A DNA stretch of 64,000 bases from IMG/VR virus record IMGVR_UViG_3300046170_000454, positions 8,040 to 72,039 of that record; one strand, 5' to 3'. This document shows, one piece after another, positions 57,440-60,872 of the stretch (position 1 is its first letter; the number at the start of each line of letters is the position of its first letter). The translations under genes were made by a program, and so were the position numbers. Under the pieces are notes generated by a model, which searched no databases, was not told the DNA's origin, and saw only the letters and a program-made list of their open reading frames with translations. This DNA comes from a virus. Taxonomy: Duplodnaviria > Caudoviricetes.

Positions 57440-57501
57440 TCCCGACAGATTAGCCCCCACCTCCCAACCTGTCTAGGACAAGTCGAGGGGTGGGGGCTAA
57501 T
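57440..57501 (-). repeat. Array repeat L3 (left terminal): 25-bp hairpin followed by CTGTCGGGA
   Basis: Minus strand reads ATTAGCCCCCACCCCTCGACTTGTC-CTA-GACAGGTTGGGAGGTGGGGGCTAAT-CTGTCGGGA. Confidence 0.85.
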
Positions 57502-57523
57502 GTTAGGCGCACAGATTACTGAG

Positions 57524-58027
57524 TCAGTACCGATTATTAGATGGTTTTAAACTGATAAACGGGTCTGGGCTCTCTTCCACTTTAGAGAAGCTAAGTGTAT
57601 TCATGAGGTCTTCTACATGCTCGTAGGGATGCCCCATATTAGCTTCCCACTTGGAAATGATGTTGGAAACTGTCGATAGATTGCAGGGTGCTCTTAAGCG
57701 GTAGTCATCCGCCCACATAAGACCCTCTTCCACCGCAGTCGGATGGTTCTCAGGGATCTCAGAGCAATACAGATACCATTGGTTATCCTCTTCTCGCTTA
57801 AACCACCAATCGAGAAATTCACTGTGCAGTTCTCTTAACCAAAAAAGATCAATGCCTTCGCCCTCACTAATGAGGGTGATCGCCTGAGCAACGACATTAT
57901 AGTCTTTGAAACAGATAGCTCCGCCATAAATAGCAGGGTTAAAGTCAATCCCAGTGTATCCTTGGATCTGCTCTTCAAAAGAGTGGGTGTAATCCAGTGC
58001 GTTAAGGTTTTTGAATAGCTCAGACAT
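57524..58027 (-). CDS. Hypothetical protein (cassette L3)
   Basis: 167 aa, AGGAG RBS inside the repeat leader. Confidence 0.75.
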   Translation of the reverse strand: MSELFKNLNALDYTHSFEEQIQGYTGIDFNPAIYGGAICFKDYNVVAQAITLISEGEGIDLFWLRELHSEFLDWWFKREEDNQWYLYCSEIPENHPTAVEEGLMWADDYRLRAPCNLSTVSNIISKWEANMGHPYEHVEDLMNTLSFSKVEESPDPFISLKPSNNRY

Positions 58028-58156
58028 GAGCGTATCTCCTGTAATGTTAGGCTCATCATAATGAGCACGTTGTAAATAAGGGTGTCGCTAGGACTCCCGA
58101 CACCTCAAACCCCCACCGTCTAAACTGCTTAGAGCAGATTAGAGGGTGAGGGTTAA
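58028..58156 (-). repeat. Array repeat L2: hairpin + GGTGTCGGGAGTCCTAG + GCTC/GAGC hairpin + RBS
   Basis: Minus strand reads AACCCTCACCCTCTAATCTGCT-CTA-AGCAGTTTAGACGGTGGGGGTT TGA GGTGTCGGGAGTCCTAGCGACACC...GCTCATTATGATGAGC CTAACATTAC AGGAG. Confidence 0.9.
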
Positions 58157-58174
58157 GATTAGCCTGTGCTCCTA

Positions 58175-58531
58175 TTACTCGTAACGTGGTCGCTCTGTAG
58201 TTTGGCGCTCGCCTGGGCGTTCCTCCACGCGTGACCACGCTTCAGTACCGCCACGCGACGAGTAGATATCACCGCCGTAAAGGTCTTCATCAGTAGCGTA
58301 ACGCTCCATGTAGTCGTGAAGGTGAGCGATCTCATCGCCACGATTGCGACAAGGGATCGTGAGGACAAGATCGTCGTGGTTATACCACCACCCGCCCTCC
58401 TCAGGCCCCCCATAACAGCGTACCGTAGTGTAGAGTGAGACGTATACAATAGTGTCCTCTGAGAGGGGATTCCCATCATCATCAGTCACTACTGCTTTAG
58501 GATCATTTGGCTTATCGAAGGTCGCGCTCAT
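58175..58531 (-). CDS. Hypothetical phage protein with a YGGPEEGGWWY motif (cassette L2)
   Basis: 118 aa, AGGAG RBS. The motif recalls small conserved phage proteins of unknown function. Confidence 0.75.
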   Translation of the reverse strand: MSATFDKPNDPKAVVTDDDGNPLSEDTIVYVSLYTTVRCYGGPEEGGWWYNHDDLVLTIPCRNRGDEIAHLHDYMERYATDEDLYGGDIYSSRGGTEAWSRVEERPGERQTTERPRYE

Positions 58532-58653
58532 GCGAAGCTCCTAAAGTTAAAGGCTCATCATAATGAGCCGTTTTAGATTAGAGAGTCTAGGACTCCCGAC
58601 ACCTCAAACCCCCACCGTCTGATCTGTCTAGGACATCTCAGAAGGTGGGGGTT
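58532..58653 (-). repeat. Array repeat L1
   Basis: Minus strand reads AACCCCCACCTTCTGAGATGTC-CTA-GACAGATCAGACGGTGGGGGTT TGA GGTGTCGGGAGTCCTAGACTCTC...GGCTCATTATGATGAGCC...AGGAG. Confidence 0.9.
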
Positions 58654-58679
58654 ATATTGGTGCTTCACTTGCTAGTAGC

Positions 58680-58970
58680 TCACTCGGTCGGCTTCCATCC
58701 TTTAGCCTTGCGGAGTTTATCCGCTTCTGACTGTACGCGCCCGTTGCTCAACTGATACCAGTCACTCTCATGAGCGTCACACCAGTTGTAATGGTGATTT
58801 ACGCTTTTGAAATCGATATGAGCCCAATTTGCGTTACGATATGAATGAATGCAAGTATGGTTGTCACTGTTTACATATGCGTGGTACTCAGCTTTTATGT
58901 ACATAAAAGCACATGAGGCAAGACCGAAAATAACTATATAAATAGCAAGTGTTTTGAGTTGCGCTTTCAT
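58680..58970 (-). CDS. Small protein with an N-terminal transmembrane/signal segment (cassette L1)
   Basis: 96 aa, LAIYIVIFGLASCAFMYI hydrophobic stretch, AAGGAG RBS. Confidence 0.7.
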   Translation of the reverse strand: MKAQLKTLAIYIVIFGLASCAFMYIKAEYHAYVNSDNHTCIHSYRNANWAHIDFKSVNHHYNWCDAHESDWYQLSNGRVQSEADKLRKAKGWKPTE

Positions 58971-59043
58971 GCGTAGCTCCTTGTCAAGAGGCTCTTAAGA
59001 GCCTGTAATGTTAGGGAAGATTGTCCTCCCTCTCTACTAACAT

Positions 59044-59293
59044 TACGGATTACTTTTTTCCCCCCGACATTAGGGCTCACGCTCGACCCGCCCGCGCCCG
59101 CATAGCACACGTATAGAATTAGCAAACCGATTAAATGTCTCAATTCTATACGTTAATATTACCGCGCACACGCGCATGGGTACGCGCATGGGTACGCGCA
59201 TGGGTACGCGCATGGGTACGCGCATGAGTACGCGCATGAGTACGCGCTGGTGTGATCTAGGCTTAAATGTCGGGGGGAAAAAAGTAATCCGTA
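59044..59293. repeat. Core bounded by 28-bp perfect inverted repeats (59044-59071 and 59266-59293); candidate twin divergent promoters
   Basis: TACGGATTACTTTTTTCCCCCCGACATT and AATGTCGGGGGGAAAAAAGTAATCCGTA are exact reverse complements. Genes diverge from both sides. Confidence 0.9.
59170..59247. repeat. 12-bp tandem repeat, 6.5 copies
   Basis: (ACGCGCATGGGT)x4, (ACGCGCATGAGT)x2, then ACGCGC. Confidence 0.95.
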
Positions 59294-59350
59294 GAGTAGA
59301 TATAGGGGGGGCAACACCGCCCCCTCACCATTCAAGCCTAGGAGATACCA

Positions 59351-59698
59351 ATGGCTACACACAGTGAACAGCGCGAGCTCGCGCTTCACAATCTCAAGCA
59401 AAAGGTCGGAGGGATCTCCCTCCGTCATCTGCGACAAAATCCGAAAACCACCCTGTTACAGTGGGAAAACCTATGTATCATCCCTTGGGAAGGCGTGGAT
59501 GAGGTCGAAGGTTTGTTGAAAGAGGTCGACCTTATGACAGCTCAAACAGACCTCCAAGACACTCTTATTGAGTGGCTTGGAGGAGCAGATGTAATGGAAG
59601 ACGCAGAGTATTTCCATCTTCGCAATATGAGCGATGGAGATGCGCTTCAGGCGCTCTACATCTTTGTCCTCCTCACTGCGATTGGGCTCTATCGCTGA
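59351..59698 (+). CDS. Hypothetical protein with a C-terminal hydrophobic segment (cassette R1)
   Basis: 115 aa, AGGAG RBS. Confidence 0.75.
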   Translation: MATHSEQRELALHNLKQKVGGISLRHLRQNPKTTLLQWENLCIIPWEGVDEVEGLLKEVDLMTAQTDLQDTLIEWLGGADVMEDAEYFHLRNMSDGDALQALYIFVLLTAIGLYR

Positions 59699-59718
59699 TC
59701 TCCCCTTTAACTTGAGAT

Positions 59719-59851
59719 ACACCTTAACCCTCACCTTCTGAGATGCTCTAAGCAGATCAGACGGTGGGGGCTTGAGGTGTCGGGAGTCCTAGCGACACCC
59801 TTAATCTTAAACACGGGCTCATTACGAGCCCCTAACATTAGGAGAGATCAC
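59719..59851 (+). repeat. Array repeat R1
   Basis: ACACCTTAACCCTCACCTTCTGAGATGCT-CTA-AGCAGATCAGACGGTGGGGGCTTGAGGTGTCGGGAGTCCTAGCGACACC...GGGCTCATTACGAGCCC CTAACATT AGGAG. Confidence 0.9.
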
Positions 59852-60437
59852 ATGAAAGTGACTTTTCAAACTCAGCTTAAAGGAGTGGAGCGCGGTAAAG
59901 CGGGCTCCAAGACCCGTTACGGTCAACACGTCGTCAAGGTATCTCTCGACCTCTCGCCCGATTACAAGGGTGATGCAGAGCGCGATCTTGCGTTATTGCA
60001 AAGCGTCCAAGCTGACGCAACAGCGGTACGCGCTGAGACAGACGATATACTCGTCGCGCAGGGCCAAGCGCCCTCAACCGACGAGGAGTGGGCTATTTCC
60101 TTCATCGGTGACCGCACCTCTAAGGTGCGCACCAAAGGAGTATTAGAGAGCCTTGTGCTCTCTGCAAATGATCTTCAGCCCCCGCATTACGTGGGGCAAC
60201 AGCATTGTGATTAACAACATCGCTTTCACAGAGCACAATGGAGCTTTTTACCTTCGCGGTAGGAAGCTCAGTAGCTCGGTTGTCGTTAAAGACACAGACC
60301 CGCCCGCGCCTAAAAAGAGGCGTATGACCCTTGTGAAAGACGCGCTCAAGAGCGTGATCCGTACACGCGGAAAACTGCTCACCGAACAATACCGTACCTA
60401 CAAGATTGACGATCCTCATGCGGTCGTGATCCTGTAA
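59852..60437 (+). CDS. Hypothetical protein (cassette R2), probably one ~194-aa gene with a +1 frameshift near 60178-60196
   Basis: ATG 59852 follows AGGAG. The overlapping ORFs ending at 60214 and 60437 join (...QPPHYVGNSIVINN...) if one G of GTGGGGC is removed. Confidence 0.6.
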
Positions 60438-60456
60438 TCCTAAAGCTGATGTTGAT

Positions 60457-60573
60457 ACACCTTAAGCCTCTACCCTCTGAGATGCCCTAGTGCAGATCGG
60501 ATGGTAGAGGCTTTCGGTGTCGGGGAGTCTTAGTGACTCTCTTAATCTCTTAACTTTACAGGAGTTACTCGCC
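60457..60573 (+). repeat. Array repeat R2
   Basis: ACACCTTAAGCCTCTACCCTCTGAGATGC-CCTAGT-GCAGATCGGATGGTAGAGGCTTTCGGTGTCGGGGAGTCTTAGTGACTCTC...TTAACTTTAC AGGAG. Confidence 0.85.
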
Positions 60574-60807
60574 ATGAGTAAAACCCCTAAAGAGGTGGTC
60601 AACCTCTTACATAAAATCTCTCTCCTCACGGAGAAGGTCTATAACCACGCTCCGATTGAGGAGCTTGAGCGGGATAATGAGACTCTTCAGCAAGAGGCGA
60701 GGAGTCTCTTTGAGAAGACACCCTCTTACGCTTGCACAGAGATCAGTGAGGCGCTCGCCTCACTCCTCCAAGCAATCAAGGTGACAGGTGTGCTTCATGC
60801 TGACTAA
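60574..60807 (+). CDS. Small helical hypothetical protein (cassette R3)
   Basis: Start moved to ATG 60574 (MSKTPKE) behind AGGAG; 77 aa. Confidence 0.7.
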   Translation: MSKTPKEVVNLLHKISLLTEKVYNHAPIEELERDNETLQQEARSLFEKTPSYACTEISEALASLLQAIKVTGVLHAD

Positions 60808-60809
60808 GC

Positions 60810-60872
60810 AAAAGCCCTCGCCGTTCTAACCTGCTTTTAACAGGTTGGACGGCGGGGGCTTTTCTGTCGGGA
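60810..60872 (+). repeat. Array repeat R3 (right terminal); also a plausible bidirectional terminator
   Basis: AAAAGCCCTCGCCGTTCTAACCTG-CTTTTAA-CAGGTTGGACGGCGGGGGCTTTT-CTGTCGGGA. T-tracts on both strands, between convergent genes. Confidence 0.8.

Follow-up and report, generated by a model that had tools for sequence, protein, structure and literature searches.

The PeSL terminator/promoter cassettes of T4-like phages are, by analogy, the closest known system to the locus described here. As part of the published account describes them, PeSLs are composite promoter/stem-loop cassettes that adjoin ORFans, and relatives bearing them differ in having either a cassette with two flanking PeSLs or one chimeric PeSL (PMC2839356). 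In the giant Pseudomonas phages 201phi2-1 and phiKZ, sequence-conserved terminator motifs were mapped genome-wide by 3'-end sequencing; the portion of that report used here describes motif combination as lengthening the stem and discusses stem length as a regulatory layer (PMC11512511).

We analyzed a stretch of 64 kb (hereafter, the window), which is part of a ~400-kb uncultured marine giant phage. Hairpins in this window bound small-gene cassettes in two arrays that diverge from a repeated centre module. The two back-to-back arrays hold mostly function-unknown genes in a hyperplastic region, and a Pfam family was absent for 8 of the 10 proteins of the locus. Copies are numbered from the centre outward as in a first-pass annotation of this DNA, with L1-L3 read on the - strand and R1-R3 on the + strand (Table 1).

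Table 1. Positions in the window of the hairpins, conserved motifs, centre module and genes of the locus
Feature	Position	Strand	MFE (kcal/mol)	z	CM (bits)	Remarks
Hairpin L1	58600-58662, core stem 58607-58653	-	-37.3	-6.07	82.8	3' of gene 58680-58970
Hairpin L2	58102-58159	-	-33.5	-5.70	84.9	3' of gene 58175-58531
Hairpin L3	57449-57501	-	-41.9	-7.00		3' of gene 57524-58027
Hairpin R1	59719-59780	+	-40.5	-7.32	88.5	3' of gene 59351-59698
Hairpin R2	60457-60520	+	-39.4	-7.65		3' of gene 59852-60437
Hairpin R3	60807-60865	+	-40.8	-8.42		Terminator form
TGTCGGG boxes	57441, 58096, 58595, 59063	-
TGTCGGG boxes	59268, 59778, 60518, 60865	+
Module behind R1	59776-59851	+				Equivalents follow L1, L2, R2
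R1-module short hairpin 2	59776-59799	+
R1-module TAATCT	59802-59807	+
R1-module short hairpin 3	59815-59831	+
R1-module ribosome-binding site GGAG		+				Before ATG at 59852
Centre module	59028-59309
Left-arm gene	58680-58970	-				96 aa
Left-arm gene	58175-58531	-				118 aa; phrog_30656, function-unknown
Left-arm gene	57524-58027	-				167 aa
Left-arm gene	56925-57392	-				DUF5824
Right-arm gene	59351-59698	+				115 aa
Right-arm gene, two ORFs	59852-60214 plus 60153-60437	+				Single 194-aa gene in relatives
Right-arm gene	60574-60807	+				77 aa

The six hairpins belong to one structured repeat family

All six hairpins listed in the first-pass annotation were present, and the folding energy of each was lower than that of 200 of 200 dinucleotide shuffles (z = -5.70 to -8.42). 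The stems comprised 20-29 pairs in minimum-energy folds (-33.5 to -41.9 kcal/mol). When both strands of the window were folded in 66-nt segments, R3, L3, R1 and R2 were the four most stable, and all six hairpins were among the 22 segments at or below -29 kcal/mol. R1 and L2 were 91% complementary across 81 nt. The six hairpins are one repeat family.

The details of the stems also agreed with those annotated earlier. Around the CTA loop, TGTC pairs with GACA in the apical stem of L1 and L3, and TGCT with AGCA in that of L2 and R1; the basal stem of R2 has switched by two compensatory pairs to CTCTACC/GGTAGAG. A tandem GA/GA internal loop occurs in L1, R1 and R2, and a pyrimidine-pyrimidine mismatch lies above the basal stem in L1, L2, R1 and R2. 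Read as RNA, L1 and L2 both have a CUA loop; L1 adds the GA/GA loop and a U-C mismatch, L2 one C-C and one U-U mismatch. L3 is nearly all paired; on the sense strand, three of its four non-canonical pairs are G-U and the other is a C-A mismatch.

That the stems covary, as had been claimed for the six copies, was borne out in an enlarged MAFFT alignment of 24 sense copies, found in two phage records and on three metagenome contigs and compared with 500 shuffles. In this alignment, whose copies are paralogues and orthologues and whose cells are not independent events, 92.5% of the stem cells were paired (84.8% in shuffles), both sides had changed in a compensatory way at 12 of 21 stem pairs, and the covariation score was 0.374 (0.233 in shuffles; 0.08-0.16 for slid partners). 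Each of these three values was reached by 0 of the 500 shuffles. The alignment indicates that the hairpin structure is under selection. Further, a non-Watson-Crick position above the basal stem was kept in 20 of the 24 copies, with varying identity, and GA/GA was found in 11 of the 24, U-U or full pairing replacing it in other copies.

The hairpins are best read as sense-strand RNA

The first-pass annotation had proposed that the structure is selected either as sense RNA or as single-stranded DNA. Its choice of the transcribed strand held: in the 24-copy alignment, that strand carried 54 G-U cells versus 6 A-C cells (39 versus 4 once collapsed to 18 copies less than 90% alike). The two molecules were not equally favoured, however. 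With RNA parameters the sense strand was the more stable one in 23 of 25 copies (mean difference -4.95 kcal/mol), whereas with DNA parameters this was so in only 16 of 25 (mean -1.06 kcal/mol), and this difference in strand preference favours RNA over single-stranded DNA. Further, a co-oriented ORF lay upstream of all 26 copies examined, ending between 3 nt inside and 82 nt before the model start (173 nt for a hairpin that comes second in a tandem pair). Judging from strand bias and placement, the hairpins are best read as RNA, acting on the sense strand as transcript-borne stem-loops.

We consider it very improbable that the hairpins act as DNA, extruded or on the lagging strand and bound by phage protein, in replication, packaging or partition. 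The centre would then be a bidirectional origin and the sense strand of each arm the lagging-strand template. The anatomy of the centre, with 12-nt tandem repeats and palindromes, is indeed origin-like; with forks leaving the centre, the best-folding strand would be the lagging-strand template on both arms, and a protein might bind the asymmetric TGTCGGG box next to each hairpin. However, the strand preference is nearly gone with DNA energies, copies far from any centre keep their orientation to genes (L122:3402), and the location right behind stop codons, together with the T-tract forms described below, points to transcription.

The phage sequences compared comprise two partial genomes of 72 and 168 kb (G000 and G001; 240 kb in all; 17% and 40% complete), which hold 6 and about 13 copies of the family, respectively, concentrated in cassette arrays. 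The family was not found in the nearest deposited phage, and blastn against 50,697 phage records returned 0 matches for a 152-nt module and likewise for the 5-kb region; homology to the PeSL units of T4-like phages was not detected in this search. The hairpin family thus appears to be lineage-specific.

Such a lineage-specific set of repeated and clustered copies, absent from the nearest deposited phage and from the 50,697 records, could also consist of selfish palindromic repeats, either miniature mobile or REP-like, whose stems are kept for their own propagation or for genome stability with little role in expression. Two tandem hairpin pairs not separated by a gene (L036:2866 with L036:2997, and the orthologues of R2 and R3) would fit this reading, which we regard as improbable. 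All 26 copies had the same orientation to the upstream gene, the wobble bias was strand-specific, and no copy was seen within a gene or as a lone insertion in an otherwise conserved spacer; neither a transposase nor a target-site duplication was noticed in an unsystematic look. The intergenic palindromes of bacteria known as REP/BIME and Correia-type repeats are transcribed and can stabilise mRNA or be processed in it. The hairpins resemble them in being palindromes that recur between genes and are carried into transcripts, but those repeats are chromosomal, can face either way and are not linked to the boundaries of cassettes.

Terminator-form and inner copies share one family

The T-run behind the stem is 4 nt in R3 (CTTTTCT) and 1-3 nt and interrupted in the other five hairpins, as had been noted for the inner copies, which have no proper T-tract. 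A terminator consensus scan flagged none of the six, R3 included. The R3 stem is flanked by an A-tract and a T-tract and lies between convergent genes (60574-60807, +; 60889-61890, -). A T-run of 4 right behind the stem was found in 6 of 24 family copies, four of which lie between convergent genes (R3, its orthologue, L036:8702 and L122:3402). In a related record, a standalone complete unit consists of a leader box, a 126-aa gene and a T-tract hairpin. Terminator-form copies therefore occur in the same family as the inner hairpins without T-tracts. R3 and the other T-tract copies look like candidate intrinsic, bidirectional terminators.

The window holds one unrelated terminator-like hairpin (26477-26544), which is shorter than the family stems. 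Stems of 20-29 pairs far exceed what an ordinary terminator needs, and a plain terminator model leaves unexplained the mismatch that persists above the basal stem.

Stem length and interruptions bear on another reading, in which the inner hairpins are candidate RNase III sites in long polycistronic arm transcripts, as in the early region of T7. As set out in part of one account, the ideal substrate of RNase III is a helix of roughly 22 bp and two turns, and internal loops or mismatches restrict the enzyme to one strand, leaving stabilising 3' hairpins (PMC3867540). In this reading, a host enzyme would cut one strand at the internal loop, so that the 3' hairpin protects the upstream message and the downstream cistron is freed. 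The stems of 20-29 pairs match such a helix, the interruptions persist (above the basal stem in 20/24 copies; GA/GA in 11/24), the copies lie between cistrons, and the finding of no strong promoter within the modules (see below) fits polycistronic arms. Like the T7 early sites, the hairpins are long, intercistronic and interrupted by internal loops, copies within a phage are alike, and a 3' hairpin is predicted to remain as a stabiliser. Unlike in T7, the family includes terminator-form members and the loops vary among copies, GA/GA being swapped for U-U or full pairing. Further, no Rfam family matched the hairpins, and an RNase III gene was not found in the two partial genomes (72 + 168 kb), although a host enzyme could serve. 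We hold this reading to be possible but rather unlikely; it overlaps with the explanation that we prefer, to which it adds the name of the nuclease.

Each inner hairpin opens a conserved intergenic module

Each inner hairpin is the first part of a conserved intergenic module of ~130 nt, in which it is followed on the 3' side by a TGTCGGG box, a short hairpin, a TAnnnT hexamer, a second short hairpin and a ribosome-binding site, in this order. The window contains 11 TGTCGGG matches (4.56 +/- 1.97 expected), and 8 of them are at the locus (57441-60871), one behind each hairpin and one on either outer edge of the centre, and they all point outward. TAnnnT occurred 15-19 nt past TGTCGGG in 32 of 39 distinct contexts, a count that rests on related sequences, versus 4.4 +/- 2.0 (maximum 12) in shuffles; this spacing was kept by three spacer types of unrelated sequence. 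The hexamer is missing from two T-tract copies at convergent sites (L036:8760 and L122:3415), and it is present at 19 nt in R3 and its orthologue despite the convergent junction. A sigma-70 consensus scan (9 of 12 matches) detected 3 sites in the region versus 5.1 expected, and 0 in the modules. The promoter part is thus weak, because TGTCGG matches the -35 consensus of the scan poorly.

In the centre module, the outward leader boxes are part of 44-nt inverted arms (59028-59071 and 59266-59309), between which lie an inner palindrome (about 59110-59157) and 12-nt tandem repeats (59158-59253). The module recurs three more times in the related record, which also has one half copy, and the leader remains joined to the centre regardless of the first gene. 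The split of the 194-aa right-arm gene amounts to one base; the base at 60179 was omitted in 4 of 4 runs.

Cassettes are exchanged at the hairpin modules

Differences in cassette content between relatives start and stop in these modules. The cassette 57524-58027, which lies between L2 and L3 in the window, is replaced by a single chimeric hairpin in the related record, and the cassette 60574-60807 is likewise missing there; both indels versus this record (2/2) end in hairpins. The identity between the two records is 73% in the array interior and 91-95% in the flanks. In a metagenome contig, a single module is all that separates the left-arm gene 58680-58970 from the right-arm gene 59852-60437, a junction such as an inversion between L1 and R1 would give. 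Seawater contigs had joints at 58157>59028, 58542>58983, 60501>60855 and 60514>59777. Loose contig ends lay in hairpins, modules or centre arms in 23 of 23 cases among those listed, but short-read contigs end at repeats in any case, and other genomic copies may account for some of the loose ends, so that the contig joints overstate the polymorphism at the locus. Taken from the compared records, the result is that related phages add, delete and swap cassettes at the hairpin modules. Since units of 70-130 nt recur in direct and inverted orientation, we propose that homologous recombination takes place between units.

The first-pass annotation had likened the hairpins to integron attC sites. They would then be folded single-stranded DNA read by a structure-specific recombinase, with the centre modules as docking sites. 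As in integrons, imperfect palindromes bound single-gene cassettes on their 3' side, structure is kept over sequence, folding is selected strand-specifically and unpaired bases persist. Further, the TGTCGGGA box, whose end coincides exactly with one indel boundary, is present at both edges of the centre module, itself repeated in the genome. The analogy is nevertheless disfavoured. The tyrosine recombinase family PF00589 had 0 matches in the two partial genomes (17% and 40% complete), whereas the control matched in 14 of 14 genomes. The crossovers vary from case to case: one lies where the box ends, one in the 3' basal stem (60501>60855) and one in the region of the short 5' hairpin (58542>58983), and one deletion without a repeat lies at 60513-60801. 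The arrays extend in both directions from a centre that retains its leader regardless of the first gene, unlike attI insertion. Judged by eye on the alignment, attC core and inverse-core sites were not present at the stem base, and the strand bias is better accounted for by RNA than by DNA energies. We regard an attC-like role as very improbable.

Discussion

The PeSL cassettes offer the fullest comparison. As far as the parts of the PeSL accounts used here extend (PMC2839356, PMC4122927), both systems are built from intergenic units of ~100 nt that occur repeatedly and contain a G/C-rich stem-loop in which G-T pairs are tolerated; both adjoin ORFans in hyperplastic regions and finish in a ribosome-binding site, and in both, relatives differ by a cassette flanked by two units versus one chimeric unit. 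The short hairpin between two promoter-like hexamers at our locus corresponds to the commonest PeSL layout. In contrast to the PeSLs so described, the units here belong to an unrelated lineage, and their main hairpin is far longer, with 20-29 pairs in three tiers and conserved interruptions. They have a weak TGTCGG-N16-19-TAnnnT pattern, the scan having found no sigma-70 consensus promoter in them, and their arrays diverge from a centre module repeated in the genome. The terminators of 201phi2-1 and phiKZ, in the part of that report considered (PMC11512511), likewise show giant phages reusing a few conserved hairpin motifs, there at many transcript ends; those terminators were mapped and are spread over the genome, whereas the hairpins here are clustered in cassette arrays and were predicted from sequence.

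We consider it somewhat probable that the hairpins are a family of sense-RNA stem-loops that close small-gene cassettes, serving both as composite terminator/promoter units and as recombination joints. R3 and the other T-tract copies would end transcription intrinsically in both directions. The inner copies, the same hairpin minus the T-tract, would act as attenuators and also as 3'-end barriers that shield the upstream message, either by themselves or once an endonuclease has cut within the module. The sequence behind an inner hairpin may re-start or re-prime expression of the next gene, making the whole intergenic unit a composite terminator/promoter cassette. Homologous recombination among these units would delete, insert, swap and probably invert cassettes in this lineage of phages.

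Six hairpins form one family and are probably selected as RNA

The six long hairpins reported in the first-pass annotation are all real, as are the structural details described for them; they are numbered here from the centre of the locus outward (L1-L3 on the left arm, R1-R3 on the right arm). Their fold energies range from -33.5 to -41.9 kcal/mol (z -5.7 to -8.4), none of 200 shuffles matched the fold of any of the six, and four of them are the four most stable 66-nt folds of the window. L2 and R1 are inverted repeats, 91% complementary over 81 nt, indicating that the six hairpins belong to one family, and the orientation relative to transcription is identical in all six. 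A covariance model built from 16 copies detected six in the record of the window; in G001, a related 168-kb phage record that is rated 40% complete and was found through a 14-mer search, it detected about 13. Further, a degenerate hairpin 26-mer recovered nine additional copies from four metagenome contigs.

We aligned 24 sense-strand copies with MAFFT, blind to structure. Among these copies, which are related to each other so that counts do not represent independent events, paired cells amounted to 92.5% (84.8% in shuffles), compensatory changes occurred in 12 of the 21 stem pairs, and the covariation score was 0.374 (0.233 in shuffles; 0.08-0.16 with slid partners). None of 500 shuffles reached any of these values, in agreement with the earlier proposal that structure is under selection. 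The proposed preference of wobble pairs for the transcribed strand was likewise borne out, with 54 G-U cells against 6 A-C cells (39 against 4 among the 18 copies less than 90% alike), and part of this excess may stem from C-to-T changes linked to transcription on the 5' arm. When RNA energies were used, the sense strand was more stable than its exact reverse complement in 23 of 25 copies (mean difference -4.95 kcal/mol), whereas with DNA energies it was more stable in 16 of 25 (mean -1.06 kcal/mol). A co-oriented ORF precedes all 26 copies examined. The covariation, the strand bias, which is larger with RNA than with DNA energies, and the position after co-oriented ORFs suggest that the molecule under selection is most likely the transcript; roles at the DNA level and an attC-like role are less likely. 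The interruption above the basal stem departs from Watson-Crick pairing in 20 of 24 copies, though its bases vary, and 11 of 24 have the GA/GA loop, in whose place other copies have U-U or pairs.

T-tract and inner hairpins

Six of the 24 copies carry a T-run of four directly 3' of the stem, usually with a matching A-tract upstream. Four of these lie between convergent genes (R3, its orthologue, and one copy each in the stretches L036, at position 8702, and L122, at position 3402). A fifth (L156:951) also ends an arm; next to it comes the DndB-like gene, which in the window is convergent. The sixth (L157:3245) has an inner-type module behind it. G001 also has a free-standing unit consisting of a leader box, a 126-aa gene and a T-tract hairpin. 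Judged by sequence, the T-tract hairpins look like bidirectional intrinsic terminators. The tails of the inner copies are only of the TTTG or CTTG type, as the poor T-runs described earlier implied. Elsewhere in the window, a bidirectional terminator-like hairpin with A-tract and T-tract flanks and a sequence unrelated to the family lies between two + strand genes, indicating that the phage also uses conventional terminators outside the arrays.

A conserved module follows each inner hairpin

Each inner copy is followed by a TGTCGGG box, which usually lengthens the stem through pairing of its first three bases with an upstream ACA. A short hairpin, the arms of which covary between copies, then precedes an A/T-rich stretch with TAnnnT; in many copies another short hairpin comes next, before GGAG and the start codon. 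The box also occurs at both outer edges of the centre, facing outward and followed by a conserved leader. The window has 11 box matches (4.56 expected), 8 of them behind the hairpins or at the edges of the centre. TAnnnT lies 15-19 nt 3' of the box in 32 of 39 distinct, though interrelated, contexts (4.4 +/- 2.0 in shuffles), and this spacing holds across three spacer types of unrelated sequence. TAnnnT is missing from two T-tract copies at convergent sites.

The box and TAnnnT could constitute a promoter that is weak or specific to the phage, its two elements separated by a hairpin. In a more speculative reading, though one milder than the cassette-capture system discussed below, they would be the promoter of a phage-specific sigma factor or activator. 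The conserved spacing is consistent with this. Against it count the relatedness of the contexts, the absence of any promoter in the modules in a scan for the sigma-70 consensus, and the absence of a sigma factor from the two partial genomes: sigma-70 region 2 gave no match in either, and region 4 gave one sub-threshold match (17.1 bits) in each record, in the window within an HTH protein. A possible likeness of the 5' arm to a T7-group promoter prompted a search for single-subunit RNA polymerase (PF00940), which matched neither partial genome; the control also matched no genome, so this negative carries no weight.

In three cassette genes, a short hairpin of the GGCTCAT...ATGAGCC type lies just 5' of the ribosome-binding site. 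The one at 58552-58569 was called terminator-like on both strands, and such a hairpin might alternatively protect the 5' end of the message that follows.

Organization of the cassette locus

Small genes form two arms that diverge from the centre, leftward on the - strand and rightward on the + strand. A DUF5824 gene and a DndB-like gene bound the locus. Among ten locus proteins tested, only these two flanking ones matched a Pfam family; one cassette protein matched a PHROG of unknown function. A GlmS-type amidotransferase gene (GATase and two SIS domains) and a PEPCK_ATP gene flank the locus, and such metabolic genes are unusual for a phage.

Positions of features in the window
Feature	Position	Strand	Remark
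L3	57449-57501	-	left-arm hairpin
L2	58102-58159	-	left-arm hairpin
L1	58607-58653	-	left-arm hairpin
Centre module	59028-59309		
R1	59719-59780	+	right-arm hairpin
R2	60457-60520	+	right-arm hairpin
R3	60807-60865	+	right-arm hairpin, closes the right arm
Short hairpins 5' of ribosome-binding sites	58049-58066, 58552-58569, 59815-59831		
Cassette gene between L2 and L3	57524-58027		missing from G001
Cassette gene between R2 and R3	60574-60807		missing from G001
DUF5824 gene	56925-57392		other conserved gene bracketing the array
DndB-like gene	60889-61890		PF14072, E 3.4e-10; 97% identical in the related record
GlmS-type amidotransferase gene	54792-56510		flanking metabolic gene
PEPCK_ATP gene	62069-63631		ATP-dependent phosphoenolpyruvate carboxykinase, 688 bits
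Terminator-like hairpin	26477-26544		unrelated to the family
HTH protein	24221-25663		sub-threshold sigma-70 region 4 match

Between two outward leader boxes (TGTCGGG, an A-run and a conserved 16-nt stretch), the centre has an inner palindrome and G/C-rich tandem repeats that vary among the copies. It is itself repeated, at 1440-1720 and 8090-8190 of L036, 1440-1860 of L153 and 2580-2833 of L052, all three being stretches of G001. In total, G001 has a half copy that heads a single-gene unit and three full copies, of which one carries a doubled leader. The centre may serve as a divergent promoter/operator or as a replication origin. About 2.2 kb of non-coding sequence in G001 (L153 4200-6456) is densely filled with repeats: at least 16 motifs of the GTTCATAC type and 11 of the TGAC.TTAGGGAAC type, spaced irregularly 40-390 nt apart. 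Nine 15-nt tandem repeats lie ahead of them.

Compared with contigs from other seawater runs, the window has one extra base at 60179 (four of four runs), at 57018, 59272 and 60522 (three runs each) and at 59060 (one run). Three of these five places are G-runs within TGTCGGG boxes. The base at 60179 breaks a gene that relatives carry as one 194-aa ORF, and that at 57018 shifts the end of the DUF5824 gene. The differences probably stem from homopolymer errors in the assembly of the window.

Cassettes are exchanged at the repeated modules

When the locus was compared with its G001 orthologue, the flanks were 94.7% and 91.2% identical, whereas the array interior (58093-60512 against its counterpart, L089) was 73% identical, which points to either fast evolution or exchange with diverged cassette alleles. 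Two cassettes of the window are missing from G001. In place of the one between L2 and L3, G001 has a single chimeric hairpin that turns from L2-like to L3-like at the end of the box; where the other is absent, R2 and R3 stand in tandem. The same centre module recurs in G001 in two more arrays and a half unit, whose genes are wholly different and include a methyltransferase and an AAA_5 ATPase.

One metagenome contig joins left-arm gene 58680-58970 to right-arm gene 59852-60437 through one module, as would result if the central segment had inverted between the oppositely oriented L1 and R1 modules. In another (L159), the same left-arm gene is followed by one hairpin, an unrelated 144-aa gene and a T-tract hairpin, and the contig then continues into sequence that in G001 lies beyond the right end of an array. 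Within the covered parts of the stretch, contigs of four seawater runs show the joints 58157>59028, 58542>58983, 60501>60855 and 60514>59777. All 23 listed loose ends fall in hairpins, modules or centre arms, evidence weaker than the assembled comparisons because short-read contigs end at repeats and some loose ends come from other copies.

The crossover points vary from case to case, as homologous exchange between the repeated modules would predict, and this speaks against a site-specific enzyme. Under the alternative, the hairpin and TGTCGGG box would be the recombination site of a dedicated cassette-capture system, a phage analogue of integrons, in which the site folds on the lagging-strand template of replication forks moving out from the centre, the centre modules serve as docks and an as yet unrecognised recombinase is encoded elsewhere in the genome of about 400 kb. 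The relative does have at least three and a half centre modules per genome as candidate docks. No tyrosine recombinase was found in the two partial genomes, and we regard this alternative as very improbable.

The phage and the distribution of the family

The window spans bases 8040-72039 of an IMG/VR virus record that is 72 kb long and has a completeness rating of 17%. Its products include a Baseplate_J protein, an SNF2 helicase and numerous very large proteins that belong to no family (none of the seven large proteins tried matched Pfam); a sheath-initiator match was below threshold. By its baseplate protein, the nearest deposited genome is that of an uncultured 485-kb phage, LR745208.1 (41.7% identity over 99%). 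This kinship and the gene content identify the window as a fragment of a huge tailed phage, with a full genome of roughly 400 kb. DNA of this phage is contained in 24 seawater metagenome runs from 21 studies; no RNA run is listed among them. LR745208.1 was rejected as a carrier of the hairpin family (best covariance model hit E 0.44).

In IMG/VR, the 14-mer matched 80 stretches, with several hits in only one contig (G001), and a gapped pattern matched 35 stretches, of which only the three G001 loci had multiple hits or were confirmed by the model; the 32 single hits were regarded as chance from the expected number. The G001 contig alone matched the centre 20-mer, also in degenerate form, and the DndB-like protein. 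The centre 20-mer matched no metagenome contig. The hairpin 26-mer matched no prokaryote genome contig (one genome per species), and this search thus gave no lead to a host or prophage. Neither megablast of 5 kb nor blastn of a 152-nt module matched any of 50,697 deposited phage records. Rfam gave no match at gathering score in the whole window; in E-value mode, 56800-61000 gave two matches (E 0.46 and 0.77), far below gathering, which were rejected.

Proposed function and relation to known systems

In our reading, the hairpins serve as terminator and attenuator within a composite cassette between genes. Transcription would end at T-tract copies such as R3; inner copies would slow or partly stop the polymerase and protect the 3' end of the upstream mRNA; the module behind would restart or process the message for the next gene; and the repeated modules would make the arrays recombine. 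Direct sequence evidence underlies the points on T-tract copies and on recombination, whereas the activities themselves are inferred. Cleavage of the long stems by RNase III, which may form 3' ends, would be compatible with their length and interruptions, properties considered for RNase III substrates in one study (PMC3867540). No RNase III gene was found in the two partial genomes.

The closest known system is the PeSLs of T4-like phages (PMC2839356; PMC4122927), hairpin cassettes that probably work alike; in the former study, a hairpin between two promoter elements is the commonest layout. The present family shows no homology to PeSLs and is not a member: its modules show no consensus promoter, the three-tiered stem of its hairpins is two to three times longer, and the arrays diverge from a repeated centre. 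Conserved terminator motifs are documented for giant Pseudomonas phages (PMC11512511), and a full-text search of the open-access literature found no description of such arrays in huge phages.

The locus carries the PeSL concept beyond T4-like phages to a marine giant phage of unrelated lineage, in which the hairpin is much more elaborate. Its architecture is testable: a repeated divergent control module, single-gene cassettes and a conserved three-hairpin joint that bears a signature of RNA-level selection and is also the site of recombination in natural variants. If the milder of the two speculative readings, that of a phage-specific promoter, is true, each cassette would be a portable unit that brings its own terminator, promoter and 5' hairpin together with a ribosome-binding site. 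The covariance model supplied here detects such arrays in metagenomes.

The small genes of huge phages number in the hundreds and lack assigned functions, and little is understood about their acquisition, exchange and expression. The cassette genes occupy just the type of region that usually harbours anti-defence and host-takeover genes, and the joints therefore mark where to look for such genes.
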